A stretch of 64,000 bases of DNA from Alphaproteobacteria bacterium. Its GTDB lineage: Bacteria; Pseudomonadota; Alphaproteobacteria; JBFXJJ01. The notes beneath the pieces are model-generated. The model was not told the origin of the DNA. It saw nothing but the letters and a program-made list of their open reading frames with translations, and did no database searches. Position 1 is the first letter of the stretch. Every line of letters starts with the position of its first letter. This document shows, one piece after another, positions 29,365-49,830 of the stretch. The stretch is taken from positions 128,001 through 192,000 of the forward strand of contig JBFXJJ010000002.1 in the NCBI GenBank assembly GCA_050175015.1. Direction: 5' to 3'. Position numbers and translations under genes: made by a program.

Positions 29365-29445
29365 ATTTTTTAACCTTTATTTTTTTTATAAAGGTTTTTA
29401 GCTGTTAGGTTAACTTAAAAAGAATAGGTTTTAAGGATTTTAGTT

Positions 29446-31828: not shown

Positions 31829-31988
31829 CCCTGTTTATTTAACTTTATGGCGGGCAACACTTAAAACAAGGTTTACTTTAAAATGTTGTCTCTTATTTTG
31901 CCTTACGGCAAATGTCTGCCGATGCGCTTTGCTTTTAGCAAAAGCAAAAGTAAAACTTTTTTAAAAAAATAGCTAAATATCAATCAAT

Positions 31989-35470: not shown

Positions 35471-35902
35471 TCAGTCAATATTATTATAAAAAAGCTTATC
35501 TCCAATCTCTAAACAAGGAGCCTTTCCTCTTGCCCACAAAGGGTATTCAAAAACATCGTGAAAGATTGTTGCGCCTTTAGTTATGTCATCTACAGCGTTA
35601 TGAAGTTTTTTCAATGAAATCCTTTTGCATATATCAAAGGCTTTATCATCTTTCGGAATATTATTTAAAAGGAAATAATCATAACTATGTTTATCCCAGC
35701 AAGAAAACAACTTCGAATCCATACAAATAGTTGTCAGTTTTGTATTTGAAGATGATTTCTTTACTCTGTTAATAGCCACACAAGCCATAGCTTCCATCAT
35801 TTTTAAGGAATCATTGTGAGACATTCCATAAATAGTTTTTGCTAAAACTTGCCAATCTTTATTTTCTTCATTTTCTTGTTTTTTTTGCTTTACTTCTTCC
35901 AT
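35471..35902 (-). CDS. SleB/Hydrolase_2-family cell wall hydrolase homolog (catalytic Glu apparently lost)
   Basis: LAKTIYG, NRV, FSCW, D.TKGAT.FH, P.WA; GEARGE position reads GMSHND. Confidence 0.7.
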   Translation of the reverse strand: MEEVKQKKQENEENKDWQVLAKTIYGMSHNDSLKMMEAMACVAINRVKKSSSNTKLTTICMDSKLFSCWDKHSYDYFLLNNIPKDDKAFDICKRISLKKLHNAVDDITKGATIFHDVFEYPLWARGKAPCLEIGDKLFYNNID

Positions 35903-35930
35903 TTCTTAAATCTCCTTAAAACTTTTAAAT

Positions 35931-37418
35931 TTATACTTCAAAATTAGTTTCTGCCTCAAAATTGCCGCTGCAACCACGCCAATCACCTTTTGATGCCGCT
36001 CTGCCATAAGCTTTTATTCTTATCGGTTCTGATGAGATACAGCCTGCAACCGCATCTAAGCCATCATCACGACCTTTTCCGCCAGGAACCCAGTTCCGCA
36101 TCTCCTCAACAAAAGGTGTTGCTAAAACGCTTTTGTGAACATTTAAAGCTTTGTCTGCCAGCAGAGCGTCAAAAGCTTCCATAATTCTGATGTCTTTTGC
36201 TTTACGGCTGTTTTCTTCAATCACACTGCACGCAACGCCAGCCTTTGCCAATTTTTGGCGCAGGATTCCAGGTAAGAATCTGCCAATGCCATTTTTTTCA
36301 ATTCTAATTGACGGTAAAAAATATCTTGAGGCGAAAGACGCAACCTTTTGACATTGAATACTTGCAGCCTTATCACTGTCATCGGCATTGACTTCTAAAT
36401 AACGCACCCGATAAAGCCAAAGAGAACCGTCTTCTGCGGTAAATACGCAGGCAATTACACTACCATCGCCCTTGTTTGCTCCCACACCATAAGCAGGATC
36501 CCACCAGCAGGAGGCAGAAACCAGCCGTTTATCACCTAATTTTAATTCCATTTTTCCTTGAGAAAATGCAGTTTCGATTTCGTTATCAAAAATCACAAGA
36601 TTTTCGACATCAAGCCTGCCGTCCGTTATATTAACTGGCTCTAACATCATTTGACTTAAAAATGATTTTTCACCATTGCGTCTTCTTATCGCTGCTATAC
36701 GGGAGAGCGAAAAACGTTCAGGCCAGCTGCTTTGTCCTGATTCATCTAAAATCGGTATCTGCAATTTATCAAAACCCAATAAAAAAGGCTCATTATCAAT
36801 ATGAGCCTTGTCTTTTTCTGTCTGATAAATCGTATTAAACGTGTGGGGCGTTCCGATATAAAGCACCATTCCTTTCGGCGTTATTATGTAGTCAAGTTCC
36901 TTTAGTTTTTCCCTAAGATCCTTTCTTTTAAAAGACGTATCCGAATTTTTAGGAACCTCAATATCATCGCAAATAATAATATCAGCTCTTGAACCCGTGA
37001 TATTGCCGCCAAGACCTCTTGCCAAAACCGACGGATCTCTTAATTCTGCTCTTCTTGCTATGATAAAGCTGTCTTTCCCCCATTGCTCTTTTTTCAAAGG
37101 AATTAAATGACGGGTCAAATCGTGCCTTTCAATAATACGCTTGATATTACGCACCATTTTTCTTGCCAGCTCTTGATCTGCTGCCATTACTAAAATGCGT
37201 AAATCAGAATTTTGAAGCAAAACCCAAGCACAAAACAAACCAACAATCGTTGATTTTCCAGAATTACGAAAAGCCATAAGCAGAGCTTCTCTTTTCTTGC
37301 TATGCCAAATTTTAGTCAGCCATTTAACTATAATTCTTTGATGCTTCGGAATTTCAAGTCCTTGAGCTTTGTTCCAAATCCAAACAAATTCTAAAAAATC
37401 AACTTTTGTTGTCATCAT
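35931..37418 (-). CDS. Terminase large subunit
   Basis: Walker A AFRNSGKST, GSRADIIICDDIE, IGTP, WPERF, nuclease WDPA and DDGLDA. Confidence 0.9.
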   Translation of the reverse strand: MMTTKVDFLEFVWIWNKAQGLEIPKHQRIIVKWLTKIWHSKKREALLMAFRNSGKSTIVGLFCAWVLLQNSDLRILVMAADQELARKMVRNIKRIIERHDLTRHLIPLKKEQWGKDSFIIARRAELRDPSVLARGLGGNITGSRADIIICDDIEVPKNSDTSFKRKDLREKLKELDYIITPKGMVLYIGTPHTFNTIYQTEKDKAHIDNEPFLLGFDKLQIPILDESGQSSWPERFSLSRIAAIRRRNGEKSFLSQMMLEPVNITDGRLDVENLVIFDNEIETAFSQGKMELKLGDKRLVSASCWWDPAYGVGANKGDGSVIACVFTAEDGSLWLYRVRYLEVNADDSDKAASIQCQKVASFASRYFLPSIRIEKNGIGRFLPGILRQKLAKAGVACSVIEENSRKAKDIRIMEAFDALLADKALNVHKSVLATPFVEEMRNWVPGGKGRDDGLDAVAGCISSEPIRIKAYGRAASKGDWRGCSGNFEAETNFEV

Positions 37419-37705
37419 TCATCTTCCATATCTGCTAAAGCCGCTCTGGCATCAGCTATTAACTGTTCAGCAATATCATCTTGGCTCGGCTCATCTTGCG
37501 TTTTTTCTGCCCATTTCATAAGCTTTAACAAGGTATCAATATGAGCCATTGCAGCTTTGCAAGCTGAGTGATAATTCGCAAACCCCTTGGCGTCCATTGG
37601 CGCTTCGGTTTTTGAAAAAAGCTCATATCCCAAAATGGCTTCTGAAACTTTTTGCGGAATAATCATTAGTAAATGTTTTTTCAAATCTTCACTTGAAAAT
37701 GGCAT
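37415..37705 (-). CDS. Helical protein coupled to terminase (small-subunit position)
   Basis: Stop overlaps the terL start; RBS ggag; function inferred only from position. Confidence 0.55.
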   Translation of the reverse strand: MPFSSEDLKKHLLMIIPQKVSEAILGYELFSKTEAPMDAKGFANYHSACKAAMAHIDTLLKLMKWAEKTQDEPSQDDIAEQLIADARAALADMEDE

Positions 37706-37742
37706 AATCTTTCTCCTTTAATATTTTTTCCTTCAAGAAATC

Positions 37743-38147
37743 TTATTTAAGATTTTTCTTAAACAGACTATCAGCAATTTTTTCACCACTGCGCCCCACG
37801 ACATAGCCGCCAACACCGATATTTAAAAGCTGCCAAAGTTCATCAGGCATATCTAAAGTAACTGATGCCCCAAATAATGCTTGAGCATAAGGTGCTATTA
37901 AAAAATTGTTGATTAAAATTGCCGTAATCGAGAGCATTAGGATAGGACGCCACTGCGATGTCAGCGTTTTTTGACTATTGGCTTCTGCCAAAACAATATT
38001 GGCTGCCGCCTTATCCATTTCCGCAGAATGACTTAATATCTGCATTTGAGCTTCATTCTTAGCCTTTTCGGCGGCTTCCTTATCGGGAATAACTTTGTCG
38101 ATTACACTGCTTATAACGGGTAGGATTGCTGCTAAAATTGCCGTCAT
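37743..38147 (-). CDS. Holin (3TM / GTA-release holin-like)
   Basis: IDK.IPD, AEA.S, WRP, G.GGY..GRS.EK motifs with TM segments. Confidence 0.8.
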   Translation of the reverse strand: MTAILAAILPVISSVIDKVIPDKEAAEKAKNEAQMQILSHSAEMDKAAANIVLAEANSQKTLTSQWRPILMLSITAILINNFLIAPYAQALFGASVTLDMPDELWQLLNIGVGGYVVGRSGEKIADSLFKKNLK

Positions 38148-38176
38148 ATCTTTTTCCTTTCATAAAATTTAGCCAT

Positions 38177-38198
38177 AAAAAAAGCCCCTTGCGGAGCC
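38177..38198 (-). terminator. Intra-operon terminator between lysozyme and holin
   Basis: Minus strand gctcc-gcaa-ggggc followed by T7. Confidence 0.65.
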
Positions 38199-38225
38199 AC
38201 ATAAAAGTTGCCATTTATTTTAATT

Positions 38226-38636
38226 TCAGCCTTGTTTAATCATCTGGGCTATTCGAGTTGACCTTAAGCCCACCTGTTTTGCCCAATCACTATTAAGCGC
38301 TTCAATAGCCGCTTTTTCAAAATCGCCAAACTCCATTGCGCTCAGCATCTTTTTAAAACCAAGAAGCCTTTTGATACCTAGGTTAAAGCACATATTGGCA
38401 AGCGCTCGTTGTCTTTTCTCTGACATATTCCGCCACCAGCTAAAATTTTTATCTAATTCAAATTCCACGTTTTCAATATCGTTTTCTAATAGATAAAATG
38501 CCTCATCTTTGGTGATGCCAACATCTTCAATATTGCGCCCGATACCGATAGTTAATTTGCCCTTGCTGCATAAATAAGGTTTTAACTTAAGCCCCTCATC
38601 TATGAGTAAATCTTTTTTAAGTTCCTCGTTATTCAT
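38226..38636 (-). CDS. Phage lysozyme (GH24)
   Basis: DEGLKLKPY.C..GKLTIGIG, NMCFNLG, S.WA.QVG.R. Confidence 0.9.
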   Translation of the reverse strand: MNNEELKKDLLIDEGLKLKPYLCSKGKLTIGIGRNIEDVGITKDEAFYLLENDIENVEFELDKNFSWWRNMSEKRQRALANMCFNLGIKRLLGFKKMLSAMEFGDFEKAAIEALNSDWAKQVGLRSTRIAQMIKQG

Positions 38637-38893
38637 TTATCCAACCTTCCCCATAAGCCATAAACCATTGCCGCTAAAAGCGCCGTTGTTGATAATCTTA
38701 CAAAAGTCTGCCAAGCTACACTTTTGGTCGCCCGCCAAGCATCAAGCAAGTTCTTTATCTCTTTAATATCATCTTGAGAAAAAGCCTTTTCTACACCTTT
38801 TTCGACTGCTGTTTCCAATACTTTTTCAAACTCTTCTCTTGGCATACAAACAAAACCGCCTTCAGCACAAGGAGTTAAAATTTCTTTTGTCAT
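38633..38893 (-). CDS. DUF6127-like phage membrane protein
   Basis: EFE..L..A.E.G, IKNLLDAWR, QTFVR..TT.LL; C-terminal TM. Confidence 0.6.
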   Translation of the reverse strand: MTKEILTPCAEGGFVCMPREEFEKVLETAVEKGVEKAFSQDDIKEIKNLLDAWRATKSVAWQTFVRLSTTALLAAMVYGLWGRLDK

Positions 38894-39055
38894 CTAGCTC
38901 TCCTCTTCTTCGATTGCTTGCTCTATTTCCTCACTTGTTGGTTTTACCTGAACTTCATCAAGCCAGATTAAATCATCAAAGGTGTCGCCATTTAAAGTCC
39001 ATCTAGCATTGATGCGGATTTTCATTAAGGTTTGAATTATTTGTTCGTGTGTCAT
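38894..39055 (-). CDS. 53-aa tail fibre assembly/XkdW-like protein (not in the ORF track)
   Basis: ATG overlaps the fibre TGA (ATGA); MTHEQIIQTL...ARWTLNGDTFDDLIWLD...KPTSEEIE; stop abuts the next ATG. Confidence 0.7.
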   Translation of the reverse strand: MTHEQIIQTLMKIRINARWTLNGDTFDDLIWLDEVQVKPTSEEIEQAIEEEES

Positions 39056-40143
39056 ACTGCAATCTCCTTGATTGTTAATGTTACAGGGGTTGTAGTACTA
39101 GAAGATATAGACACCGTTGACCCCACCGTTCCTACAGCCATAACTCTTAATTTAAAATTTTTAGTCGTTAATGATGTATTGTTTATAATTGCTCTTATAT
39201 ATAAAGGAGCGTCAACAAGGGCTTCCCCTGTACTCTTACTAACTGATCTAAAGCCGCATTCTGCTGTATTTAATTGAGTCTCGTTATTTACATCATAGAT
39301 TTCAGCTCTGCCTAACAAATAGGCATCAGCTTTATCAGCTCCATAATAATATTGATTAAAAATTCTATATCCGCTGGCTTCAATGATTAAAATCGAATTT
39401 GAAGACTTCGGGGTGTATGCTAATGTCAAGACAGCTTGGAACTCCTGCTCAGTCGTTGTTAATGAAGACGTCCTTGAGGACATTTTAAAACCAATCTGCG
39501 TTCCTGAAGCTGTAAGAATTTCATCTCTTGCTGCCTCGGCTGCTATTTGGGCGGCAACAGCTTCGCCTCGATAACCATCGGCTGCGCTTTCACTACTGGC
39601 AGCGCTTGCTGCACTTGAAGCTGCCAGCTCGGCTTGAGCCGTTGCGCTAGTAACAATGGTATCAAAATTATCGCTGCTATTGATAAGACCATCACCGTCT
39701 TCATTCCAAAGAAGAGCCTTGCCTGCATTGGGGGACGGCATCTCGGTATTTATATCCGCCGCATAAGCTGGCAGTTTGAATGCTCTTGAAATACTGTCAT
39801 CAATCTGCTGAATTGCAGCCGTTTGAAAATCAAGTTCATCGTTAATAACCTTTGCTCTAAAAGCTCCACCTGTTTGAAAATCTGATGTTCGTTCTATAAC
39901 CAGATTTCTAAGAAGCGTTACTATGGTCCCTTGCGTTGGAGCGGTATCTAAAACAATCTCACCGCCTCCGCTTTCTCCTGCACCAGAGATACTAAAGCCT
40001 GTGGTTATCTGCTCACTATCAAGCCAAACCTGCAAATCCTCGTCTTTAAAAATAGGAAAAGAATAAATAAAAATGGTTTGTTCTCCATCTGCTTCATAGC
40101 GTATTCTTGGAGTTACATCTCCAATAACAATATGTTCTGTCAT
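39052..40143 (-). CDS. Short tail fibre with T7 gp17-like N-terminal anchor
   Basis: Y.ADG.QT.F.Y.F.IF...DL.V, R.L.IER.SDF, NDELD; Ala/Ser coil; beta-rich C-terminus. Confidence 0.75.
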   Translation of the reverse strand: MTEHIVIGDVTPRIRYEADGEQTIFIYSFPIFKDEDLQVWLDSEQITTGFSISGAGESGGGEIVLDTAPTQGTIVTLLRNLVIERTSDFQTGGAFRAKVINDELDFQTAAIQQIDDSISRAFKLPAYAADINTEMPSPNAGKALLWNEDGDGLINSSDNFDTIVTSATAQAELAASSAASAASSESAADGYRGEAVAAQIAAEAARDEILTASGTQIGFKMSSRTSSLTTTEQEFQAVLTLAYTPKSSNSILIIEASGYRIFNQYYYGADKADAYLLGRAEIYDVNNETQLNTAECGFRSVSKSTGEALVDAPLYIRAIINNTSLTTKNFKLRVMAVGTVGSTVSISSSTTTPVTLTIKEIAV

Positions 40144-40169
40144 TTTTTAATCCTTCATAAAAAAATCTT

Positions 40170-40649
40170 TTAAAGAAGTGAACCTGAAGAACCTAAGACG
40201 TTGTTATAATATCTTAAGTTATTCATAGCACTGCTGTAGTTTATTGAGTTTAAATCCATAAGATTCTGGCGCTTTTCGTTGCTTAAAGAACGAGTTACTT
40301 GAGATATTTTGTACTGATCCATTTCTTTATCATAATCAGCATCTTCATCAGATCTTTTAGCCATACCCATTTGTACTGCCGCCGAAGAACCGCCGCTTCC
40401 AACTCCAGAAGCTCCCATTGCCGCTCTTTGCGTAGCCAGTTCTGCTTTTAAAAGATTAAGCCGCTTTTTTTCTCTTGCCTCTGCTGTAGTTTTGATATTT
40501 TCAATACTAGCTTGTGCGGCTTCTTCCTGAGCAGCCTGTGTTGCTGCCACGTTTTTTGCCTGAGCTTGATACTGCTTATTAGTTTGGTATTGTCCCAACA
40601 AGCCTGTTCCAACTCCAGCAATAGCTGTCGCTGCCTGTAATGCTCCCAT
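40170..40649 (-). CDS. Internal virion protein (gp14-like)
   Basis: Gly/Ala-rich N-terminus, QRA.MGASGV..GGS motif, follows the nozzle gene. Confidence 0.6.
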   Translation of the reverse strand: MGALQAATAIAGVGTGLLGQYQTNKQYQAQAKNVAATQAAQEEAAQASIENIKTTAEAREKKRLNLLKAELATQRAAMGASGVGSGGSSAAVQMGMAKRSDEDADYDKEMDQYKISQVTRSLSNEKRQNLMDLNSINYSSAMNNLRYYNNVLGSSGSLL

Positions 40650-42559
40650 TATTCACCTACCTTTATTTTCGTTGTTACTGATAAAATATTCAAATCAAGC
40701 GGCTCATCACCCTTGACGCTCCAGATGGGCTTTTGCAAGTCCCTAATCCAGCCAAAAGCCTTAACAACAACATCTCCAGTGTACGCTGTAGGAGGACTGT
40801 CTAAAAAATCCGCCGTATCAAGATGAGGCATTAAGACGTGGCGATAACCTTTGCCCGTTGTTTCCGCCATAAACGCAGAGGTATTTTTTACCCTAAAAGA
40901 AATATCAATCAGACGATATGAACGCATCTGCATTATGCTGCTTGTTCCAGAAGTGATAACTGGCGGCAGCGGTTCTATTTGATGAAAAAAGCCAAGCCCT
41001 ACTTCTATTTGCGATACTTCATAAGGAAGATTAATGGCACCATCTAAAACGGTGCAGTCATTAATAAGAGCTTCATCGGCTCTTACCTTAACTTTTTTGC
41101 CTTCAAGATGCTCTAAACCTTTCCAAGTTTTCTTTGGCTCTTCCGAATCCCCTGTAAGAGCGCAATCCGTATGCAAATCATCGTCAAACACCTCTAAGAA
41201 ATAAGAGTCATTTCTTTTCACAATGACGTATGTGTTCCTGCCAGCGACCGCCACCGATAAAAAACGGCCATCGGTTTCAGCCAAACTCCAAGCGGTTATC
41301 TTTTCCGTACGATAATTAGTAACAAATGCCATACTGCCATCTGCCACCACAACATTTAAAAGCCTTTTAACAGCATCATAGTCCTGATCCAGCGGATCTT
41401 TAATAAGATGCTTGGAAAGCATTGCAAGATCGTTTGCCTGATATGCTTCTTCTAAATCGGTATAAATAAACTCCCTGATTTCATCACCATTAGCGCCAGC
41501 AAAAAGAGTTGCGCCGTCAACATTTAATGGCGGAACATATCTTTTCAGAATTGAACCTATTCTTGTCTGACGAGACAGCTGTATATTAGACGGCGTTAAA
41601 GGATCGCCTGTAACCATCCATTCTGAACCCGAGGTAAACACTTGTAAGTGACGTCCTGAAAAAATGGCGCAAATCGCATTAACTTGATCTGATAATATTT
41701 GAAATTCTATTGATTCATCATCAAGCCCTTCGCCCAAATCAAAGTTCATCAAATCGCTTGACTTTGACAGCCATAAACGATTAGGCAAATCTCTTGAACC
41801 ACCAATAACCAATCTGTCTTGATGGAATGTTACGGATATTGGCCAGCCTCTTAATGTCGAAAAAGCTGGTTCTTCCCAGTTTTTAGTTTCATCAGTTTCC
41901 GAGAGTTCAACTTTTACCGTTGCCGCTATTTCCGTCGCAGAATTAACAGCGGTTACAAGAACCTCACCTTCAGCCAAACGAAATCTTAAACCAATATAGT
42001 CATCACTAAAAAAATCTTTTGATGCTGTTATAGTAATATCACCCGTTGTTCCAGAAGGGGTAAAAGTTAAATCATCGTCCTCAAATTTAAAGTAAGGCTG
42101 CATTAAACTGTCATCAACTTCCTCATATTGCCATTCAGCAACCGACCAGTCAGCATCAGAAGATCTTGTTATCTTTCTAGGAGGTACATCTCTATGCGTT
42201 ACCAGAAGAGTGTCGGCACTTTGCGTCCACCTTATAGTAGAAAGCTGGTCTTCGGTCCAAGGCGTATCAAAACTTGCAATTTTAACCCCATCGAGATAAA
42301 CATCTACGGCTTCATCTTTAAAATTAAGCAGATAGACCTGCTCGGTATTGAATTCAAAGGCTACCAACCTGCCGACACCATCTAACGTGTCCAAATATCT
42401 TAAGCCGCTTCTTCTTGAAATTCCTCCTGTTGGGTGAACAAAAACATTTCTTAATTTCATCGCCCCGTTTTCATATGATCGAAGATCTCCTCTTCCCAAA
42501 AGATCTGGCGACAGCTCTCCTGAAGAAAAGCTGGTCTTAACAAGATTTAAAACGCTCAT
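40649..42559 (-). CDS. Tail tubular protein B / nozzle (gp12-like)
   Basis: SF..GELSP.L.GR.DL..Y..G, GG..RR.G, QSAD, GWP....FHQ.RL, TAW. Confidence 0.85.
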   Translation of the reverse strand: MSVLNLVKTSFSSGELSPDLLGRGDLRSYENGAMKLRNVFVHPTGGISRRSGLRYLDTLDGVGRLVAFEFNTEQVYLLNFKDEAVDVYLDGVKIASFDTPWTEDQLSTIRWTQSADTLLVTHRDVPPRKITRSSDADWSVAEWQYEEVDDSLMQPYFKFEDDDLTFTPSGTTGDITITASKDFFSDDYIGLRFRLAEGEVLVTAVNSATEIAATVKVELSETDETKNWEEPAFSTLRGWPISVTFHQDRLVIGGSRDLPNRLWLSKSSDLMNFDLGEGLDDESIEFQILSDQVNAICAIFSGRHLQVFTSGSEWMVTGDPLTPSNIQLSRQTRIGSILKRYVPPLNVDGATLFAGANGDEIREFIYTDLEEAYQANDLAMLSKHLIKDPLDQDYDAVKRLLNVVVADGSMAFVTNYRTEKITAWSLAETDGRFLSVAVAGRNTYVIVKRNDSYFLEVFDDDLHTDCALTGDSEEPKKTWKGLEHLEGKKVKVRADEALINDCTVLDGAINLPYEVSQIEVGLGFFHQIEPLPPVITSGTSSIMQMRSYRLIDISFRVKNTSAFMAETTGKGYRHVLMPHLDTADFLDSPPTAYTGDVVVKAFGWIRDLQKPIWSVKGDEPLDLNILSVTTKIKVGE

Positions 42560-43125
42560 TTACGCACCTCAACCAAAGAATAATCTTCAAAACATTTAGG
42601 ACTTTCTTGCTGCGCATCAATTAATCTGGCACGTTTAAATTCTTCTTCTGCCATCTTGGTCAAAACATCAGATCTTGTTGTGCTTTCAGTTAAAGGTATA
42701 CAAAATTCTGCCGCCAATCTTGCAATTAACACCTGCGTAAAATACGGAGGAAAACTCTTTTCATCTGGGCGGAAAATATAGGTTAAATTAACACTATCAG
42801 AATCAGTATGAAGTCTGTTTTCAACAATACGATAGTTAATTCCTCTGCCCCTATTTCCGATACCTGCCGAAATAATCCTTAAAAAATCAGATGGAAGCTT
42901 AAAAGCATTTTTAAAATCCGCCACTGGCGACGCCGCAAGTTTAGGCAGAGTTGTCTGAGCAACAGCAAAACTCCACGGATAAACTGCCAGCATTGCATCT
43001 CTTGTTGATGGATAAAGATTGGCTGCAACTTCGGCTTCAGCCGTGCCTTCATCAAAAGATGAAATGCTTGTTGCTCCAAGTTTTAATAATGCTCTTGAGC
43101 AAATAGCTATACTGCCTATAGGCAT
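42556..43125 (-). CDS. Tail tubular protein A / adaptor (gp11-like)
   Basis: ICSRAL..LG...I.SF.E, Y...RD..L...PW.FA, LP.DFLR. Confidence 0.85.
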   Translation of the reverse strand: MPIGSIAICSRALLKLGATSISSFDEGTAEAEVAANLYPSTRDAMLAVYPWSFAVAQTTLPKLAASPVADFKNAFKLPSDFLRIISAGIGNRGRGINYRIVENRLHTDSDSVNLTYIFRPDEKSFPPYFTQVLIARLAAEFCIPLTESTTRSDVLTKMAEEEFKRARLIDAQQESPKCFEDYSLVEVRK

Positions 43126-43153
43126 TTTTAAATCTCCTTATAGTTAAACATAT

Positions 43154-43186
43154 AGGGCAGTTTAGATTCCTCTAAACTGCCCTTTT
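43154..43186. terminator. Perfect 13-bp hairpin between head and tail genes
   Basis: agggcagtttaga-ttcc-tctaaactgccct. Confidence 0.6.
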
Positions 43187-43226
43187 AAGCTTATTGATTA
43201 TCTATGTCGTTTTTTAAAAACTGATA

Positions 43227-43484
43227 TTATTCAGCCGCCGACACAATATTTGCCATAGCAACAACACCGCTGCTATTTGATGACACATTTAAAACTGCAC
43301 CCTTTGGGGTTGTCTCATTATCAGTGTTTGCAATAACAAAATCACCTACTCTAAGAGCTTCAGATGCATCATTGAAATATCCCTCGGTCTCAACTGATGC
43401 TGCTGCATCTGCGGTTTTATACTGCCATAATGTAAAGCCGTTAGCATACGCTAAAACTGCCAAATTTTTATTATTAAAAGCCAT
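43227..43484 (-). CDS. Small virion protein after the capsid gene (decoration-like)
   Basis: LAYANGFTLW.Y.T.D....V...GYFN; RBS aaggag. Confidence 0.65.
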   Translation of the reverse strand: MAFNNKNLAVLAYANGFTLWQYKTADAAASVETEGYFNDASEALRVGDFVIANTDNETTPKGAVLNVSSNSSGVVAMANIVSAAE

Positions 43485-43513
43485 TAGTATTTTCTCCTTA
43501 TGTTTAAAAAAGT

Positions 43514-44353
43514 TTAAGCTTCAACTAAAGTTGCGGTGTCATCACACTTAATTTTGACGATACCCGTGTTATCAATCAAACACGCACCTTGACTCATTGA
43601 ATTACTGATAAAATTAGCAGCGTGATCACCGTGCCACGTAATATCGCTTTTAACGTCTTGACCTGAAGCGTGTCCAACTGCGGTTTTATGGAAAATGTAA
43701 CAGTCTCTTTCCTTAGTGTTATTAAGCGTAAGTCCTGTGTGCATCAACCATACAATACCAAGCCATTTGCGGCTTTCTGTGCCATTAAGCCAAGGCAAGT
43801 CTTCACCGACATAATCGGAATCGGAAAATTCCTTAATATTCAAAAGCTCATTCCATTGATTAACCCCAACTAGACCAAAACGCTGTCCGTCATCAGGAAC
43901 ATCTTGAGCATTAATTTTTGCAAACGCCTGCAAAATAAGACTTTTAGAAATTCCTGTTGAATAATCACCTACGCTGTTACTGGCATCAGAAAGAGCATTG
44001 ATAATAAGCTCATCGGTTTTGCGTCCTAAGGCATAAGCTCCTGCTGCGGCCACAACCTGCCTTTCATCGACGTTGGTTTTAAGCTCGTCAAGACTGTCAA
44101 CCCAATCACCTGCATAGTAATCATAAAGATTGCATTCCACAGGTGTAAAATCCATACTCATAACAGGAACAAGACCGTGTCTGGCTTTGGTTGAAGCTGT
44201 TCCCTTTCCTACTTTCTGGAAAACTGCGGTTGCTCCTTTTATATTGTTTTTGGTACGCACCATATTTCTTAGCTTAGATCCAGTACGTTGGTAAGCAGTG
44301 TGAACTTCAGCTTCAAAATGCTTCGTAAAAATTTTATCTATATTTTCTGACAT
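43514..44353 (-). CDS. Major capsid protein
   Basis: F...F.AEVH.AYQR.GSKLR..VR, D..DE.K...D.R, A.ALGRK.DELII; start ATG 44353 after RBS aggag. Confidence 0.88.
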   Translation of the reverse strand: MSENIDKIFTKHFEAEVHTAYQRTGSKLRNMVRTKNNIKGATAVFQKVGKGTASTKARHGLVPVMSMDFTPVECNLYDYYAGDWVDSLDELKTNVDERQVVAAAGAYALGRKTDELIINALSDASNSVGDYSTGISKSLILQAFAKINAQDVPDDGQRFGLVGVNQWNELLNIKEFSDSDYVGEDLPWLNGTESRKWLGIVWLMHTGLTLNNTKERDCYIFHKTAVGHASGQDVKSDITWHGDHAANFISNSMSQGACLIDNTGIVKIKCDDTATLVEA

Positions 44354-44384
44354 AATTTGCCATCTCCTAAAAAATTGAACATAA

Positions 44385-44483
44385 AAATAAAAAAGCCTAA
44401 AAGAACAGTTATGGTTAAGAAACCGCTGTCGTTTAGGCATAGAAAAACAGGGGCTTTTAATACGTCCTAAAAGTTATCCCTGT
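44385..44483 (-). promoter_or_regulatory. Structured capsid-gene leader (two hairpins with ATAA bulges, then T-tract)
   Basis: Minus strand acaggg-ATAA-ctttta...taaaag-cc-cctgt and gcctaaa...ggtt-tctt-aacc-ATAA-ctgt...tttaggc-tttttt. Confidence 0.5.
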
Positions 44484-44507
44484 AAGAAAAACGTTTTTTA
44501 AAAATAA

Positions 44508-45245
44508 CTACTGATTGCCGTAAAGTTTTTTAAACCCATCGGAAACCTTGGAAATATATGATGGGTCTTTATCTCTCCAATAACGAGGATCTTTCATCAT
44601 TGTTTTAAGCTCTTTTTCTGAAACCTCAGAACTGGCAATTTCACCCCTATTCCCAATATCAGGTTCTCCGGCTCCCATCATTCTGCTGATAGCAATAATG
44701 CCTTCGTAAGTTGTTGCTAAAGTTTCATAAATATCTTCGGGAAGATTTTTCTGTCCCCAAGATGATATTTGCCTTGAAGTTTCTCTCCAGCGCTCTTCTC
44801 CGCCAAAATGACTTATAAGCTTCTGCCGTTGTTTGTCTGCTTCAAATTCTGCCGCCATTTCTTCAATCAAAGGAATCACTCTCTCGGCGGCTAAGTCATA
44901 CACCAACTGCGCCTGCTGCGGCGTAAAATCGGCATCTAGCAGTTTTTGATTAACATCACCATCACTTTCTAAAAGCTTATGACGGGTAACAATGTTATAA
45001 CCATTAGCATCTTCGGGAATACCAAAAGCTTTTCTAAAGGTTGTCCGTTCTTGAGGATTGTTTTTATCAAATGGCAGTTTAATCATATTTGATAATTTTT
45101 TCTCAAGCTCAATATACGATTTTAAAAGTTCGTTGGCATTGATGCCGCCTGATTTATAATTCTTAAATTTTTCAGGTACGCTAAGAGCAACATCATCTGC
45201 ACCTGTTGAATCAAGGTTTTCATTCTCTAGTAAATTTTCACTCAT
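44508..45245 (-). CDS. Capsid scaffolding protein
   Basis: VPEKF, KSY.ELEKK, M.DPRYW...DP; directly upstream of the capsid gene. Confidence 0.78.
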   Translation of the reverse strand: MSENLLENENLDSTGADDVALSVPEKFKNYKSGGINANELLKSYIELEKKLSNMIKLPFDKNNPQERTTFRKAFGIPEDANGYNIVTRHKLLESDGDVNQKLLDADFTPQQAQLVYDLAAERVIPLIEEMAAEFEADKQRQKLISHFGGEERWRETSRQISSWGQKNLPEDIYETLATTYEGIIAISRMMGAGEPDIGNRGEIASSEVSEKELKTMMKDPRYWRDKDPSYISKVSDGFKKLYGNQ

Positions 45246-45269
45246 TTTTAAAATATCCTTATCTCTAAA

Positions 45270-45545
45270 TTAATTTTCATCTGCTCCCATTTTGACCATA
45301 GATTTAATATGGAAAAAAAGAGACCTCTTGCCTTCTTGATACCGTAGTTCCTCATTGCTGGCATCTTGAGGCAAAACTCTTCCTGTTGTTATTTTTTCCA
45401 AATAACTCATTACTTTTGAGCCGTCATTTCCGCTAAAAATTCGAGCAAAAGAAAGAGCAATATTCTCGCCGTTCTCTCCTTCTCGCTCATTATTTCTAGC
45501 CTCTAGGAATTCCCAACCCATAAGCTTCTTTTTCATATTCATCAC
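45270..45545 (-). CDS. Bbp19-like phage protein
   Basis: F...F....G..V..YL, L.Y.EG.R; lies between portal and scaffold. Confidence 0.65.
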   Translation of the reverse strand: MMNMKKKLMGWEFLEARNNEREGENGENIALSFARIFSGNDGSKVMSYLEKITTGRVLPQDASNEELRYQEGKRSLFFHIKSMVKMGADEN

Positions 45546-45556
45546 CTCCTCAAAAT

Positions 45557-47224
45557 CTAAGAATTAAGTTTATTTGGAACAGGAACCGTTTCAGCTAAAG
45601 CTGCACTTTGGTTTAAATTAGGGCTACCAATGGCAGGCATAGCCTCTCCTTTGTTGTCAACTGACGCCAGCATATTAGGAATGGACTGTAATAATGCCGC
45701 AGATTGATTAGTATCAGCGCCATTTGCCATCATTATATCTTCGTCAGTTTTGATTAACGCTTCGGGAACCCCTAGCGTTCTTCCAAGCCATCTTGCCGCT
45801 TCTTTAAGATTAACCGCAGCTCCCGCCTCAGCCCCCATACCAGCAATAGACGTAAGCCACGAAAGGGTGTTGTTAGCATCTTGCTGTGCCTGCTGTCTTG
45901 CGAGCGGTGAACGATATTCAATATCAACCATATGACCATCAACCCAAATATCAGAAATTTCACCACGACGTCTTAAAATTGCAACAGCTTTAAGAATAAG
46001 CGGTGTCAGCAGCTCTGACTGTAACCTGCCATAAGTTGCGCCTAGAATTCTCGCCATTTCTGCCGAGCGCTCTAGAACCTCGGTAGCGGTCATATTAGAT
46101 GCTTCAACCTGCCCTAGTTTATCAGCTAAAAGAGCGTGTTTAATTCTGGTACGCAGGTCTTTTAAAACCAATTCGGAAATATCAAATCGCCCAGGGGCTT
46201 CAAGCGGCGTTAGCCCCTTGGAACCAACCGCTTTAGGAATAATTGCTCCTGGGATTAATTTAATGTTTGCAGGATTTAAAACCCCGTCATCATCAGCCAG
46301 CCAAATACCTGTAACTGCTATCGTCGCATTTTTTAAAACCAGCTCAACAACCTTATTAGCGGTTTTTATATCTGGCAGCGCTTTCATTATGGGGGAACGT
46401 CCATAAATCTCTCCTGGAGCTTTCTGCCACCTAAAATTAATAAAAGGCGAATTAGCAAAAACCCCTGACTTTAAAACTCTATCAAAAGCTTCATCTTTCA
46501 GCCCTAAACCGTTGTCATTATCAATAAATGCCGTATATTCAAAACCGCCTTGACTTCTAGTACTTCTTGGAACAACGGCTTCAACAACATTTACCTTAAA
46601 ATCTGGTTCTTTTTCTATTTTGGAAGATACCTGCGGTGATAACACCTTATCGCCAAAACGCTGCTTTAGATTTTGCAAAGATGTTTCATATCTTCTAAAA
46701 CTGGCATCTATCCTGCCGCTTTCGGTTTCTTCAAATGCCATTTCGAATAACGGCACAGCACAAAACCTAAAAGCCGAAATATCTCCAGACGGCGCCTCTT
46801 CAAATAATAAGGTAGCGGTACCTGCTGTTACTAAATCCAAATAACACTGATGAATTTCAATAGCAAAAGAAGAGCGATCGAAATGAGATCTGATCGTTTC
46901 GGTTGTTTTTTCCAATAACGGTGCTATTTGTTTCCGTTCTTCCTCAGATAAATCGACGCCTCCGCCTAAGCCAAACCATCTTGCCCACGGCGGAGTAAGT
47001 CTTGCAAGCATACTAGCTGCCAACTGGTCAACCGCATCGGGAGCTGTCCCATCAAAAAGGCGATCGCTGCTGGTTTTTTTAACAAAGCTAGCGGTGCTGA
47101 ATCCGCCTTCACGCTGGGGAAGAGAAAATTCATAACATTCGCTCCAGATATTTTCCCAAGCGGAACGTCTCTCCCAAGCCCTTTGGCATCTTTTTCTTAA
47201 ATTTTGAAATAAATCTTCTTCCAT
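45557..47224 (-). CDS. Portal / head-tail connector (T7 gp8-like)
   Basis: LAA......TPP...WF, DL...GT, RW....GE.YGRSP...ALPD, TATEV. Confidence 0.92.
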   Translation of the reverse strand: MEEDLFQNLRKRCQRAWERRSAWENIWSECYEFSLPQREGGFSTASFVKKTSSDRLFDGTAPDAVDQLAASMLARLTPPWARWFGLGGGVDLSEEERKQIAPLLEKTTETIRSHFDRSSFAIEIHQCYLDLVTAGTATLLFEEAPSGDISAFRFCAVPLFEMAFEETESGRIDASFRRYETSLQNLKQRFGDKVLSPQVSSKIEKEPDFKVNVVEAVVPRSTRSQGGFEYTAFIDNDNGLGLKDEAFDRVLKSGVFANSPFINFRWQKAPGEIYGRSPIMKALPDIKTANKVVELVLKNATIAVTGIWLADDDGVLNPANIKLIPGAIIPKAVGSKGLTPLEAPGRFDISELVLKDLRTRIKHALLADKLGQVEASNMTATEVLERSAEMARILGATYGRLQSELLTPLILKAVAILRRRGEISDIWVDGHMVDIEYRSPLARQQAQQDANNTLSWLTSIAGMGAEAGAAVNLKEAARWLGRTLGVPEALIKTDEDIMMANGADTNQSAALLQSIPNMLASVDNKGEAMPAIGSPNLNQSAALAETVPVPNKLNS

Positions 47225-47229
47225 AAAAA

Positions 47230-47454
47230 CTATTCTCCTAACAAATTCTTGCGTCCGTTATCAACTGAAACGTCATTCAACACACCACGCCAAGATGTCT
47301 TGATATTTTGAGCCAGCCCTTTACGGTTACGTTCAACCGTACTAACAGAAGACGTGCTATCATCACTATCGTCAGTATCATCAATTTCCGTCGTTGTTTC
47401 GGCTGTCGGCGAAACATAACTCGGAGTGCTTGGAACACTAAAAAAGCTTCCCAT
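47230..47454 (-). CDS. Small virion protein upstream of portal (gp7.3-like position)
   Basis: MG..F..P start, I.TS.RG, terminal LLGE; RBS aaggag. Confidence 0.6.
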   Translation of the reverse strand: MGSFFSVPSTPSYVSPTAETTTEIDDTDDSDDSTSSVSTVERNRKGLAQNIKTSWRGVLNDVSVDNGRKNLLGE

Positions 47455-47494
47455 AAAAAATCTCCTTAAATCTTTTTCCTTAAAAAATTTTAAT

Positions 47495-47533
47495 AAAAAA
47501 ACCCAGCTGACTAACTCTAATCAACTGGGTTTT
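47495..47533 (-). terminator. Terminator in the 5' leader of the virion operon
   Basis: Minus strand acccagttga-N10-tcagctgggt followed by a T-run, between the promoter and the first structural gene. Confidence 0.75.
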
Positions 47534-47589
47534 AAAGGGTGATTCCCTAACAAAAAGGCTCTAACTTCAGAGTCTAGGTACAGTTATAC

Positions 47590-47651
47590 TTACTGAACCT
47601 GTTATCAGATGTACCACAACTGTTCCCTAATGTCAAGGATTATTTTCTTAT
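47590..47651 (-). promoter_or_regulatory. Virion operon promoter with LexA-type box, operator and +1 motif
   Basis: TTGACA 47636-47631; 17-nt spacer; TACATC 47613-47608; GAAC-N7-GTAC 47625-47611; operator 47635-47650; CAGGTTCAGTAA 47601-47590. Confidence 0.72.
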
Positions 47652-48150
47652 TTTTTTCACTTAATAGGAATTTATACAGTTTATAGGGGGTTACAATTCT
47701 GAAATTGTGAATCCCGAGAACTCGTTTTACCGCCTCAACACAGGTAAAAAATCCTAAAGGAGCAGATACTAAAGGAACATCTTTAAGACTTGTCGCCATT
47801 ACCGTAAAGCCTTGCTCTAAGTACCAAGATGCCATATCGAAATCGCCGCAAACAGGCTGAATAATAACATCTGTTTTGTGAAGCATCGCATCAATCGTAA
47901 GCCACAGATCGCCATTTCCAAGCGTAATAAAGCAATGTCTAAAACCTTTTTTTAAAAAACGCAGCCACCATTTAGAAACATCGCCCGAAAAAACCACCAG
48001 ACAAACTTTCCAGCGGTATTTTTGCATTAAATCATTTTGAAGTTGGCAATTTTGAAGAACCATATCTTTAAACAGCTTTTTATTTAGATTCGCATTTTCT
48101 AACTTCTTCATTTTCTCGTCGAATCCAGCCAAAACAAACGATTTATTCAT
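47605..48150 (-). CDS. Phage protein with permuted papain-like (His...Cys) motifs
   Basis: VVFS, LKKGFRHCF, TCVE.VKR.LG, TP..L; start ATG 48150 after RBS ggaggt. Confidence 0.6.
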   Translation of the reverse strand: MNKSFVLAGFDEKMKKLENANLNKKLFKDMVLQNCQLQNDLMQKYRWKVCLVVFSGDVSKWWLRFLKKGFRHCFITLGNGDLWLTIDAMLHKTDVIIQPVCGDFDMASWYLEQGFTVMATSLKDVPLVSAPLGFFTCVEAVKRVLGIHNFRIVTPYKLYKFLLSEKNKKIILDIREQLWYI

Positions 48151-48359
48151 AATTAACCTCCTTAAATTATTTCTATAAAAAACGTACAAGGACTAGAACT
48201 ATCGACGTTTAAACGTGCTAGAGTTCTGCGATTTATTTTAGCAATACAATCTCCTAAGCTTGGCTCGTATAGAATATACGTCCACATAGAGATTAAAAAA
48301 TAATGCGAGGCTCTATCCCAACCAGAACACCGTAAGGAACAAACAAAAAGCACTAAAAT

Positions 48360-48746
48360 TTAATTTGATATGGCACTATTTTTCCACTCAAAAACAATCG
48401 CTCTTTGCTTAAAAACTTCATCTAAAACCCCAATCCCCTTATGCCAAAGAGTTTCCTCATAAGAGGTTGCTCCAAAACGAACATCTGGCGGCTGATTTTG
48501 CTTGCCATATTTAATTAGAACATTAAATTCTGGCGCATTTAGAATATTTTTTGCCAGCAATGATTTAACAATCAGATAAATATCATTAACCTCGCAGGGA
48601 CGAGCCGTTTTTTTATAATCGCCATCACCCCTATTTTTATAATCGGTCATCATCATACGGCAGAACCAGAACCACGCCGTTTCAGTAGAATCAAAAGGTT
48701 CGACCTCAAGATCTTCAATAAAAAAATAATTTATTTTTCGTCCCAT
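48360..48746 (-). CDS. 128-aa protein divergent from the repressor (candidate activator/antiterminator)
   Basis: PF.S.E.AWFWF, RPCE..DI, YG.....PD, LW; ATG 48746 after RBS ggaggt; function inferred from position. Confidence 0.6.
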   Translation of the reverse strand: MGRKINYFFIEDLEVEPFDSTETAWFWFCRMMMTDYKNRGDGDYKKTARPCEVNDIYLIVKSLLAKNILNAPEFNVLIKYGKQNQPPDVRFGATSYEETLWHKGIGVLDEVFKQRAIVFEWKNSAISN

Positions 48747-48763
48747 AATAACCTCCACAACTA

Positions 48764-48813
48764 GAACATATAAAGAACATTTTATTAGTACAAAAAGTTG
48801 CACGAGATGTCAA
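48764..48813 (-). promoter_or_regulatory. Promoter with consensus LexA box at the start site
   Basis: TTGACA 48813-48808; 17 nt; TACTAA 48790-48785; GTTC-N7-GTTC 48778-48764. Confidence 0.78.
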
Positions 48814-48821
48814 CCATTTTT

Positions 48822-48911
48822 TAAGATTATTTTCCTATTGACTTTTACCCTCATTTAATGGGATTATTTTCTTATAGATGTTTTCAAAAATATCTTAAGA
48901 TTATTTTTTAA
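48822..48911. promoter_or_regulatory. Three candidate repressor operators at 37-bp spacing
   Basis: TAAGA-ttattt-TCCTA 48822; TGGGA-ttattt-TCTTA 48859; TAAGA-ttattt-TTTAA 48896; TTGACT at 48838 faces the repressor gene. Confidence 0.6.
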
Positions 48912-48951
48912 GTTTTTTGATACCCGCAATTTTAATTTTTAGGATTTTTTT

Positions 48952-49581
48952 ATGAATTTTGAACAAGTTTGGCAAGCAATCGATATTTTAGCAGAACTAA
49001 ACGGACTTTCAGCATCAGGACTTGCTCGCAAAGCAAACCTTGATCCAACGGCATTCAATCCCAGTAAAAGAGTTGGAACCGACGGTCGTTTGCGTTGGCC
49101 CTCGATGGAAAGCATTCATAAAATTTTGACGGCAACGAACTGTTCTATGGAATTTTTTGCAGGACTAGTCGGTGAGGATTCCAGCAAAACAGGTAACACA
49201 ATCCCTCTTCTAGGGTTTGCGCAAGCTGGAAATGATGGTTATTTTGATGAATCAGGCTATCCTTACGGTGTTGACAGCTGGGACGGCATAGAATTTCCTC
49301 AAGTAAACGACACCAACGCCTATGCAATTGAGGTTAGCGGGGATTCTATGGAACCAGCATACCGCGAAGGTGATGTTTTAATTGTTTCGCCCTCAGAAAC
49401 GGCAAGACGTGGCGATAGAGTGGTCGTAAAAACCAAAGAAGGCGAAGTTATGGTAAAGGAGCTTAAACGGCAGACAGCTATGAAAGTTGAATTGAAGTCT
49501 CTCAATCCTGAACACTCCGACCGTGAATTTGATGCCCGTGATATTGCTTGGATTGCAAGAGTTTTATGGGTAAGCCAATAA
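48952..49581 (+). CDS. HTH plus peptidase S24 (CI/LexA-like) repressor
   Basis: SGLARKANLDPTAFN.SKR...RWPS HTH; AQAG cleavage-type site; GDSMEP (Ser) and VKEL (Lys) dyad. Confidence 0.92.
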   Translation: MNFEQVWQAIDILAELNGLSASGLARKANLDPTAFNPSKRVGTDGRLRWPSMESIHKILTATNCSMEFFAGLVGEDSSKTGNTIPLLGFAQAGNDGYFDESGYPYGVDSWDGIEFPQVNDTNAYAIEVSGDSMEPAYREGDVLIVSPSETARRGDRVVVKTKEGEVMVKELKRQTAMKVELKSLNPEHSDREFDARDIAWIARVLWVSQ

Positions 49582-49773
49582 GCAATTGTTTTTAATCTAA
49601 ATTTTTTAAAAATTGCAGATTATCTAACCCTTCCCGAGGTTAATGATAAACTATAATAAAAGGCTTTAAAACTTCTTGCTTTTAATTGTGTTCATTCTGA
49701 CTAAATAAAAAAGTTTTGATTTTACTTTTACAAAAGTAAAAACCTAACCTGTTAAGGTTGCCGTAAGGCAAAG

Positions 49774-49830
49774 AAAAAACCTCCCAAGCGTCAACTAGGC
49801 TAGCTAGTTATACCGACTCTCAAGGGAGGT
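49774..49830 (-). terminator. Long-stem terminator
   Basis: Minus strand aacctccc...gggaggtt followed by T-tract, with an inner aactag/ctagtt stem. Confidence 0.5.

Follow-up and report, generated by a model that had tools for sequence, protein, structure and literature searches.

We analysed a 64,000-nt stretch of an alphaproteobacterial metagenome-assembled genome (MAG), hereafter the window, and found between positions 35471 and 49581 a podovirus-derived module, complete in its virion, packaging and lysis genes, that is unable to replicate or integrate, has been inherited largely vertically and is under purifying selection. This element of about 14 kb consists of 19 open reading frames (ORFs), one on the plus strand and 18 on the minus strand, all of which are intact and leave no room for other genes between them. 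On balance, we favour the reading that it is a domesticated, podovirus-derived particle module (a viriform) that is passed on vertically and makes DNA-filled tailed particles on induction, most probably in the manner of a gene transfer agent (GTA). A bolder version, to which we give somewhat less than even credence, is that it represents a second, independent and ancient family of alphaproteobacterial GTAs, derived from a T7/HTVC010P-like podovirus, fixed at the lysS-pyrD site before many Rhodospirillales-type families diverged, induced by damage, devoid of the gp15/gp16 core and handing its DNA to the uptake system of the recipient.

The module contains a full set of head, tail, lysis and packaging genes, all on the minus strand and preceded by a control region with a repressor gene and two early genes, p147 and p194, which are described below. 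A small conserved ORF, p74 (47230-47454), gave tblastn matches in several related loci and had no Pfam or PHROG family match. It lies ahead of the gene for a T7-type portal, or head-to-tail connector (45557-47224; PF12236, E 9.7e-133; phrog_332, 5.3e-110), which was the single PF12236 match in the whole genome. The genes that follow encode a Bbp19-like small protein (45270-45545; PF25181, E 1.9e-10), a T7 gp9-like scaffolding protein (44508-45245; PF05396, E 8.6e-15) and the major capsid protein (43514-44440; PF19821, E 1.5e-69; phrog_3437, 8e-73), the true start of which probably lies downstream of 44440, as homology begins near residue 30. Next comes p85 (43227-43484; phrog_18004, 2.5e-19; a weak Phage_cement_2 match below the cut-off), a small conserved head-associated protein that is possibly a decoration or cement protein. 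A terminator-like hairpin with a 13-bp stem (43154-43183, minus strand) lies 3' of the capsid and p85 genes, in a place like that of the terminator behind the T7 capsid gene. The tail genes encode tail tubular protein A (tube A, a gp11-like adaptor; 42556-43125; phrog_394, 1e-49), tail tubular protein B (tube B, a gp12-like nozzle; 40649-42559; phrog_376, 1.3e-135), a gp14-like internal virion protein of 159 residues, the sole core protein of the element (40170-40649; phrog_418, 8.2e-07; PF24072 T7_gp14, E 7.1e-4, below the cut-off), and a tail fibre (39052-40143). The fibre matched phrog_1640 and ten other tail or fibre PHROGs only over residues ~10-130; this N-terminal attachment domain of about 130 residues is conserved and the C-terminus is variable. 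The lysis cassette comprises a DUF6127 protein (38633-38893; PF19622, 1.1e-10), a GH24-type lysozyme (38226-38636; PF00959, 1.1e-13) and a holin with three transmembrane segments of the GTA_holin_3TM family (37743-38147; PF11351, 1.1e-20). Packaging would be served by the T7-type large terminase TerL (35931-37418; NCBIfam NF033889 termin_lrg_T7, 411.6 bits against a cut-off of 150; phrog_38, 1.2e-82) and by p96 (37415-37705; phrog_31793, 1e-24, a family of unknown function), a candidate small terminase (TerS) judged by its position upstream of and overlapping TerL, an arrangement also conserved in related loci. The last gene of the element encodes a SleB-like cell-wall hydrolase (35471-35902; PF07486, E 1.1e-7; phrog_938 endolysin, 2.1e-12).

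A scan of 65 window ORFs detected no family of integrases, polymerases, primases or RNA polymerases; those outside the element (40 plus six flanking) belonged to ordinary cellular families or to none. A tRNA scan of the window found none, and of the 17 matches to integrase families in the 2.5-Mb genome, none was closer to the element than about 78 kb. At the two junctions, in the window and in the locus of a related genome, G048, no att-like repeat longer than 9-10 nt was present. An HK97-type PF05065 capsid was absent from the genome, whereas a Caulobacter control matched, and none of the NCBIfam GTA models reached its cut-off (the BaGTA endolysin model scored 26 bits against 315). PADLOC, run on 10 small or unknown proteins, returned a weak NUDIX-related match only. 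The initial annotation had described an uninterrupted cluster of about 14 kb directly flanked by host genes, free of integration and replication functions and att repeats, and of podoviral rather than RcGTA-type HK97 lineage; each of these statements held, and all matches were T7-type. On the terminase side, pyrD (34266-35396, minus strand; PF01180, 7.4e-55) starts 75 bp past the hydrolase gene, and a HAD gene follows it. On the repressor side, the gene for class-I lysyl-tRNA synthetase (LysRS; 53612-55198, minus strand; PF01921, 4.4e-135) lies about 4 kb beyond the repressor, with five inserted genes in between. Both ends of the element are real boundaries, because in a genus with element-free species the indel runs from the repressor stop codon to the stop codon of the last lysis gene.

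Judged from its proteins, the viral ancestry of the element is podoviral, of T7/HTVC010P-like type. Complete phages as close relatives, a possibility raised in the initial annotation, were not found among 50,697 phage records: the best complete genome was that of Pelagibacter phage EXVC031P (OQ414635.1), an HTVC010P-type pelagiphage and the closest cultured phage, with 35% identity in the portal and 44% in the capsid, and no complete genome gave a TerL match above 27% identity. EXVC031P has the same order of portal, scaffold, capsid, small head protein, tube A, tube B, 159-residue gp14-like protein and fibre, with 32% identity in tube A and 32-35% in tube B, and a p85 homologue in the identical position. 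Unlike the element, the phage has a genome of 34.2 kb with an early region, and carries genes for proteins of 783 and 1247 residues between the gp14-like gene and the fibre. We take its 159-, 783- and 1247-residue proteins to occupy the places of T7 gp14, gp15 and gp16. The TerL of the element belongs to a different lineage (the T7 equivalog) and did not match that of EXVC031P at E 0.01, and the phage has nothing that corresponds to the repressor, p147 or p194. In the available text of one study, the closest homologues of HTVC010P terminases were placed in a Rhodospirillaceae genome (PMC8477408).

In the element, the gp14-like gene is followed directly by the fibre gene, with no ORF between. 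Of 56 related loci, 50 had no more than 1 kb between tube B and fibre (median 505 bp), and five of the other six were rearranged. With the 783- and 1247-residue proteins of EXVC031P as queries, tblastn gave no match in the genome (E 0.01) or in 87 related loci (E 1e-3). Fast-evolving core proteins could escape BLAST, yet the cluster has no room for them. Going by gene content, the element has lost replication, integration and the gp15/gp16-type trans-envelope ejection core. One unannotated fragment of 5084 bases, filed as "Bacteriophage sp." from faecal samples (MT838907.1), encodes a portal 58% and a capsid 70% identical to those of the element, values well above those of every complete phage; it probably belongs to this element family and was entered as a phage.

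The reduced architecture recurs widely. Among 40 relatives of the genome, none was closer kin than the same class, and five, each from another family, encoded portals 56-68% identical; where contigs permitted, these five showed the order repressor, p147, p194, portal through to terminase and hydrolase. When one genome per species was scanned with a tube B alignment (A1), 438 of 503 candidate stretches encoded a tube B relative. Synteny and gene order were inspected in the best 80 of the 438 loci, a sample biased to the most similar, and the record titles of these were mostly Rhodospirillales, Rhodospirillaceae, Magnetospirillum, Azospirillum, Caenispirillum, Telmatospirillum, Terasakiella, Pacificispira and unclassified Alphaproteobacteria. 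In high-GC loci, genes were detected by tblastn with window and G048 queries, and clusters of antisense shadow ORFs were set aside. The gene order recurred among the inspected relatives, with some variants rearranged. The 44 recurrent clusters of extra ORFs in these relatives fell by Pfam into host enzymes, peptidoglycan-binding, Sel1, CAAX-protease and holin families, and none into integrase or replication families. In IMG/VR, at least 491 relatives were found among 589 candidate stretches, and among the best 80 of them many were provirus calls of 12.3-17 kb that ran from the repressor or p147 to the hydrolase or holin.

Four IMG/VR records of 44-61 kb were considered as complete phage relatives and rejected, since they proved to be the element with insertions and had no phage early region. 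In one of them, integrase, methylase and recombination genes abut the capsid gene; in the other three, the portal lies 11-45 kb away from the capsid gene. The scaffold-capsid interval appeared as an insertion hot spot in relatives (L043:3381-7916; L181:49-8230; records of L192, L136 and L170), and an Azospirillum-type locus carried a GGDEF-EAL protein gene and a chemoreceptor gene between scaffold and capsid. One insertion-bearing record had a TGA within the portal gene. The presence of host genes and of an integrase-bearing prophage inside the cluster indicates that the element is no longer bound by the limits of a phage genome.

In an even sample of the class (401 genomes, G000 included), 49 genomes had a close tube B match (E <= 1e-150), with exactly one match in each carrier. 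Carriers include genomes of 0.9-1.4 Mb. Those of 1.1-1.2 Mb (L203, L204) hold a compact element of about 10 kb with repressor, p147, p194, head genes, tube A and B, p96, terminase and hydrolase, in which BLAST detected no fibre, lysozyme or holin. In the 0.9-Mb genome (L201) the gene order was scrambled, and the terminase match spanned only 200 of 495 residues. A distant tube B homologue, split alike in eleven genomes (profile 7-148 and 239-631; E ~1e-37), was seen in genus g79 (G125-G137). The one g79-type locus viewed (L108) had portal, scaffold, tube A/B and fibre matches in another context, and the g79 loci may be a second conserved podovirus-like element.

Position, base composition and phylogeny all pointed to common descent of the element with its hosts. 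Of the 23 loci that extend 1.5 kb or more beyond the repressor, 10 had class-I LysRS and/or an aminotransferase IV next to the element, and five further loci had a partial LysRS at the locus edge; of the 43 that extend 4 kb or more beyond the terminase end, 28 had pyrD, a HAD hydrolase or methylmalonyl-CoA mutase there. The GC content of four core genes rose and fell with that of the adjoining host genes (r = 0.95, n = 29), differing from it by -0.002 on average and by 0.05 at most, with core/flank values that extend from 0.40/0.39 for the window up to 0.72/0.72. As a stand-in for the host phylogeny we used flanking genes together with family and genus codes. Distances between concatenated tube B, tube A, capsid and terminase proteins correlated with mutase distances (r = 0.81, n = 11) and with pyrD distances (r = 0.75, n = 15); none of 2000 permutations was as high, a significance that is overstated by the non-independence of kin. 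The initial annotation had proposed phylogenetic congruence as a check, and against the mutase it was complete, with 8 of 8 internal splits common to the two trees of 11 loci (shuffled labels gave a mean of 0.3 and a maximum of 3 in 1000), whereas against pyrD it was partial. An element tree of 52 loci agreed with genus, family and order where known: Magnetospirillum, Phaeospirillum, Paramagnetospirillum and Stygiobacter loci grouped together, as did two Azospirillum loci, and the congeneric genomes G039 and G048 joined family member G061 and then G162 of the same order. No pair of near-identical elements in distant hosts was found among the compared loci.

The genus of G039 allowed gain and loss to be compared. 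Only two of its six species carry the element. The four others hold no element remnants; what they lack is bounded by the stop codons of the last lysis gene and of the repressor gene, and no repeat flanks it. When 4.6 kb of flanking DNA was used for a tree, with a carrier from another genus as root, the element-free species came out as a single clade of four (support 100) that lay among the two carriers (support 87), so that a single deletion is enough to explain them. These results indicate that the empty-site pattern reflects loss, not recent gain. A patchy distribution with empty sites had been named in advance as a pattern that would count against vertical maintenance; it is present in form (49 of 401 genomes; four of six species of one genus lacking the element), but the empty sites are explained by a single loss. 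Inheritance is largely vertical, as conserved position, ameliorated GC content, a tree congruent with a flanking gene, purifying selection and single copy number all support, in line with the initial annotation.

Selection was measured as the ratio of nonsynonymous to synonymous substitution rates (dN/dS) by the Nei-Gojobori method, and three pairs of loci had unsaturated dS (0.05-0.24). In these, dN/dS was 0.00-0.10 for portal, scaffold, capsid, tube A, tube B, p147, p194 and repressor; for TerL it was 0.05-0.06, but 0.19 in one of the three, so that 23 of 24 gene comparisons were at or below 0.10. More distant low- and mid-GC pairs gave 0.02-0.18, similar to the flanking mutase (0.03-0.12). 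Relaxed selection, which the initial annotation had named as a pattern that would refute its reading, was not seen in the unsaturated pairs, whose values (0.00-0.19) are those of purifying selection. Such selection excludes a decaying remnant, and alone it does not separate a domesticated element from an active phage.

The control region resembles that of a temperate phage. The plus-strand gene (48952-49581) encodes an S24 (LexA/CI-like) repressor of 209 residues (PF00717, E 9.3e-26; phrog_4 transcriptional repressor, 7.4e-32), which belongs to the element because it is lost together with it at the empty sites. The window protein has an Ala-Gly site (QAG), the serine of a G-D-S-M motif and the lysine of VMVKEL, and the cleavage motifs were kept in 32 of 36 aligned relatives; the repressor is predicted to be of the CI-like, autocleavable type. 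Host LexA itself was considered and rejected (40.5 bits against a LexA cut-off of 110.95). In the other four of the 36 (the G039 locus L020, L104, L084 and L087), which are two genomes of G039's genus and two loci including one from a gut MAG, the Ala-Gly site and the Ser-Met motif are degenerate. These repressors are apparently non-cleavable, which suggests that the SOS link was given up and control changed in those lineages. The divergent region of 205 bp (48747-48951) between the repressor and p147 contains direct repeats (D1-D3) and a palindrome (I9), with repeated operator-like sites at 48816-48833 and 48884-48907 that are partly palindromic around CTTAAG and are putative operators.

The two early genes lie on the minus strand. 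p147 (48360-48746; family alignment A3, 13 sequences) is a helical protein with features like those of a helix-turn-helix, modelled with a pLDDT of 84.5. Its best structural matches were weak: a Q21 antiterminator (Z 5.8; rmsd 4.9, 95 residues aligned), AlpA (Z 5.4) and sigma region 4 (Z 4-5). Foldseek against the PDB gave nothing at E <= 0.001 for either early protein (best E for p147, 1.2), and PDB sequence-profile searches with p194 and p147 returned 0 hits and 1 chance hit at E 0.82, respectively. The Atlas clusters with names nearest to p147 included a Q-protein cluster at 0.80, within the chance range. We regard p147 as a candidate late-gene activator or antiterminator of Q/AlpA/sigma-4-like type. 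p194 (47605-48150; alignment A2, 15 sequences) was modelled with a pLDDT of 82.2 and resembled TseH (Z 7.1, 114 residues aligned), YiiX (Z 6.3) and a cysteine peptidase (Z 6.1), with H72, C73 and C137 invariant in all 15 sequences. The nearest named Atlas cluster was a YiiX/YebB-like hydrolase at 0.77, a lead only, and Pfam gave scattered single matches among the 15 family members. p194 is probably a cysteine hydrolase, and its core may be of the permuted papain-like (NlpC/P60- and YiiX-like) kind. A strong terminator-like hairpin with a 16-bp stem and a T run (47498-47533, minus strand) lies between the early genes and the late operon. Together these features would fit a lambda-like scheme of repressor, early regulator, read-through and late operon.

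From the gene content and its evolution, which are what was observed, we infer a course of events that is conditional at every step. The S24 repressor would keep the divergent promoter closed through the operator-like repeats. On DNA damage, activated RecA would lead the repressor to cleave itself at the Ala-Gly site, p147 and p194 would be expressed, and p147 would drive transcription past the hairpin (47498-47533) and on through the late operon of 12 kb. Particles would then be assembled from portal, scaffold, capsid, tube A and B, the gp14-like protein and the fibre. The T7-type terminase would have no replicating phage concatemer as its substrate and so would pack chromosomal DNA, and holin, lysozyme and wall hydrolase would lyse the producer cell. 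Induction by the SOS response is probable, particles made on DNA damage would be expected to be filled with host DNA, and GTA activity, in the sense of packaging and transfer of host DNA, is plausible from the genes present. Since there is no gp15/gp16-type core, delivered DNA would reach the periplasm at most and would need uptake and recombination by the recipient. The entry of RcGTA likewise depends on competence and uptake genes of the recipient. The genome encodes ComEC and DprA, which are near-universal, and their presence is therefore only compatible with recipient-driven uptake.

Several observations weigh against a GTA-like, vertically inherited element. Its distribution is patchy: only 49 of the 401 sampled genomes carry it, and of 127 genomes from the order to which G039 belongs, 11 gave a close match (E below 1e-230), among them 7 of 10 in one family; this tally includes G110, a genome flagged as unpublished on which no conclusion depends. 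Distant tube B matches in that order (E 1e-30 to 1e-100) lay in other contexts and were not counted as the element. The four element-free species of G039's genus have clean sites, with lysS and pyrD 7-7.7 kb apart against 17 kb in carriers. The pyrD tree has only 5 of 11 splits in common with the element tree, and some conflicting nodes had support of 0.97; pyrD is a short, faster gene. Two high-GC pairs gave dN/dS of 0.18-0.57, where the flanking pyrD and aminotransferase gave 0.20-0.30. The assignments of p147 and p194 rest on Z scores of 5-7, which the comparison tool graded as common arrangements, and the hairpin in the p194-portal interval was comparable in only 9 of 35 loci, the window included, in a strict scan. 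The element also brings its own CI-like repressor in the style of a temperate phage, as opposed to evident host control. Lastly, the capsid shares 44% identity with that of a phage whose genome measures 34 kb, and the heads may therefore have room for the whole 14-kb element and its flanks, unlike those of classical GTAs.

Among the alternatives, the one that survives best, although we consider it unlikely, is a PBSX-like killer particle or an SOS-triggered module for altruistic lysis and DNA release, in which particles would be produced and may contain host DNA, but whose selected function would be to kill competitors or lyse damaged cells, not to deliver genes. Control by an S24 repressor and perhaps a Q/AlpA-like regulator is reminiscent of the circuits of SOS-controlled lysis and of pyocins, and the loss of a gp15/gp16-type core would fit particles that adsorb and do not inject. 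Fibres with a conserved N-terminal part of ~130 residues and varying C-termini, and the retention of three wall-hydrolase genes along with the holin, would suit such a function as well. Killing or lysis has no need of portal, terminase and capsid, yet these are the best-conserved proteins (dN/dS 0.00-0.08, with TerL at 0.19 in one of three pairs), and the genomes of 1.1-1.2 Mb keep head and terminase genes, with fibre, lysozyme and holin undetected there.

Slightly less probable still is that the element is a minimal temperate element of 14 kb that remains mobile, is packaged whole with its flanks and re-enters by homologous recombination at the lysS/pyrD flanks or through an unrecognised recombinase. 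The discrete indel with exact boundaries and clean empty sites would be expected of such an element, as would a CI-like immunity repressor of its own, a patchy distribution and two conserved early proteins of uncertain function; the kinship of its capsid with that of the 34-kb phage means that the element could fit into the head. The absence of an integrase, an att repeat and a tRNA target argues otherwise. So do the single copy in 49 of 49 carriers, a GC content equal to that of the host from 0.39 to 0.72, a topology shared with the flanking mutase and the lack of near-identical elements in distant hosts. Host genes and a prophage are tolerated within the cluster, and one loss accounts for the examined empty sites. 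That the element is an ordinary decaying prophage remnant which lost its early region and has no function is very improbable, for although replication and integration genes are missing and some relatives are disrupted, rearranged or interrupted by an in-frame stop in the portal gene, all 19 genes in the window are intact and the same reduced architecture is found in hundreds of genomes of different families, under strongly purifying selection, co-diverging with its hosts and kept in genomes of about 1 Mb.

Other features of the window were recorded alongside the element. At 49700-49780, 120 bp past the repressor stop, lies an interspersed, partly palindromic repeat of ~35-70 bp with about 25 more blastn matches over 14 contigs of the genome, which breaks metagenome contigs (depth 55 against 16). 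It was considered as an att site and rejected, as no copy is present at the other end of the element. The metagenome runs with this sequence come from one study and were examined as contigs, and no RNA run was among the runs identified; the contigs of three runs showed no joint, excised circle or empty-site contig, and the only break lay near 49700-49780. Two small paralogous ORFs (49891-50136 and 50432-50671; 81 and 79 residues) between the repressor and a NUDIX gene had no match in related loci and may be local insertions between the element and lysS. Three tandem paralogous ORFs at 28228-29961 (179, 171 and 171 residues) had no Pfam family and clustered only with each other. Near 31800-32000 the gene orientation and the GC skew change sign, the genes converge and the cumulative skew has its maximum around 31-32 kb, a pattern that may reflect a replication terminus or no more than a local switch of strand.

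If the favoured reading of a domesticated, GTA-like particle module is true, tailed phages of different virion architectures have repeatedly been domesticated into host-serving particles within one bacterial class; on the bolder version, the GTA lifestyle would have arisen convergently from an unrelated virion type. The known alphaproteobacterial GTAs are of the RcGTA and Bartonella types. The element would then be a candidate route of gene exchange for Rhodospirillales-titled lineages, including magnetotactic, plant-associated, marine and gut members. The 12-17 kb matches of provirus callers would need to be read anew, hundreds of which IMG/VR lists as viruses, and the family would serve as a natural test of how far a podovirus can be stripped, here of replication, integration and the ejection core, while selection still maintains it. 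Several carriers are cultured isolates, which makes the idea directly testable; among them are Caenispirillum bisanense USBA 140, Telmatospirillum sp. J64-1, Terasakiella sp. PR1, Pacificispira spongiicola KN72, Magnetospirillum aberrantis SpK and Paramagnetospirillum kuznetsovii LBB-42.

Compared with T7-like phages (Autographivirales), the element has a T7-type portal, scaffold, tail tubular proteins A and B and large terminase. For these phages, an RNA polymerase and DNA replication genes of their own are defining; the element has neither among the 65 window ORFs, lacks gp15/gp16, and its gp14-like match is weak. The layout of its control region recalls the circuits of AlpR/AlpA and of lambdoid CI/Q, in which an autocleavable S24 repressor faces a small regulator gene that is followed by a terminator before the late or lysis genes. 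It differs in that the fold match of p147 is weak and without sequence similarity, and no Q-binding element was identified. PBSX-type prophages of Bacillus are repressor-controlled, damage-inducible, non-replicating and host-conserved, and their particles hold host DNA. By description, they are unlike the element in their myovirus-type particles, their Gram-positive host and a role in killing, not transfer.

The closest functional parallel would be RcGTA (Rhodogtaviriformidae), which, like the element, is a chromosomal cluster of about 14-15 kb with head, tail and terminase genes, without replication or integration genes, host-inherited and under purifying selection. Both have a holin of the same Pfam family, GTA_holin_3TM, and both lack a self-sufficient DNA-injection apparatus, which for the element is read from its genes alone. 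RcGTA originated from an HK97-type siphovirus (prohead protease, HK97 capsid, tail tube, tape measure), whereas the modules of the element are T7-type. RcGTA is controlled by host regulators of the CtrA/GafA type. The element, by contrast, has its lysis genes inside the cluster, its own S24 repressor and a patchier distribution.

As set out in the available text of one source, criteria for GTAs and viriforms are virion and packaging genes without replication or integration of their own, evolution with the host, packaging of essentially random host DNA with no preference for the agent's own genes, a head with room for less DNA than the encoding cluster and host regulation (PMC9662315). For the element, virion genes without replication or integration were found in the window and in its relatives, and its evolution was in concert with the host, with losses. 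In the open full-text literature, we came across no account of a GTA-like element of T7-like or podovirus type from Alphaproteobacteria; supplements and subscription journals lay outside this search, so that a prior description is possible. The parts of the literature available to us report clusters of homologues of GTA capsid, portal and tail components in Holosporaceae and Rickettsiales (PMC9254644), and mitomycin-induced 10-kb particles of Azospirillum linked to RcGTA-like genes (PMC3899980, PMC3245306). The Azospirillum particles were considered as evidence for the element and set aside, since the available text attributes them to RcGTA-like genes (PMC3899980). FpGTA of Faecalibacterium prausnitzii, compared here by description from the available text (PMC12946183), is also GTA-like with an inferred podovirus-like morphology, is described there as the first of this kind and was the single podovirus-like candidate that we found in print. 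It differs from the element in its host, a gut Firmicute, its two loci and the experimental demonstration of host-DNA packaging. Judged from its genes, the element described here is neither a member of the RcGTA family nor a full T7-like phage, and would work most like a GTA.

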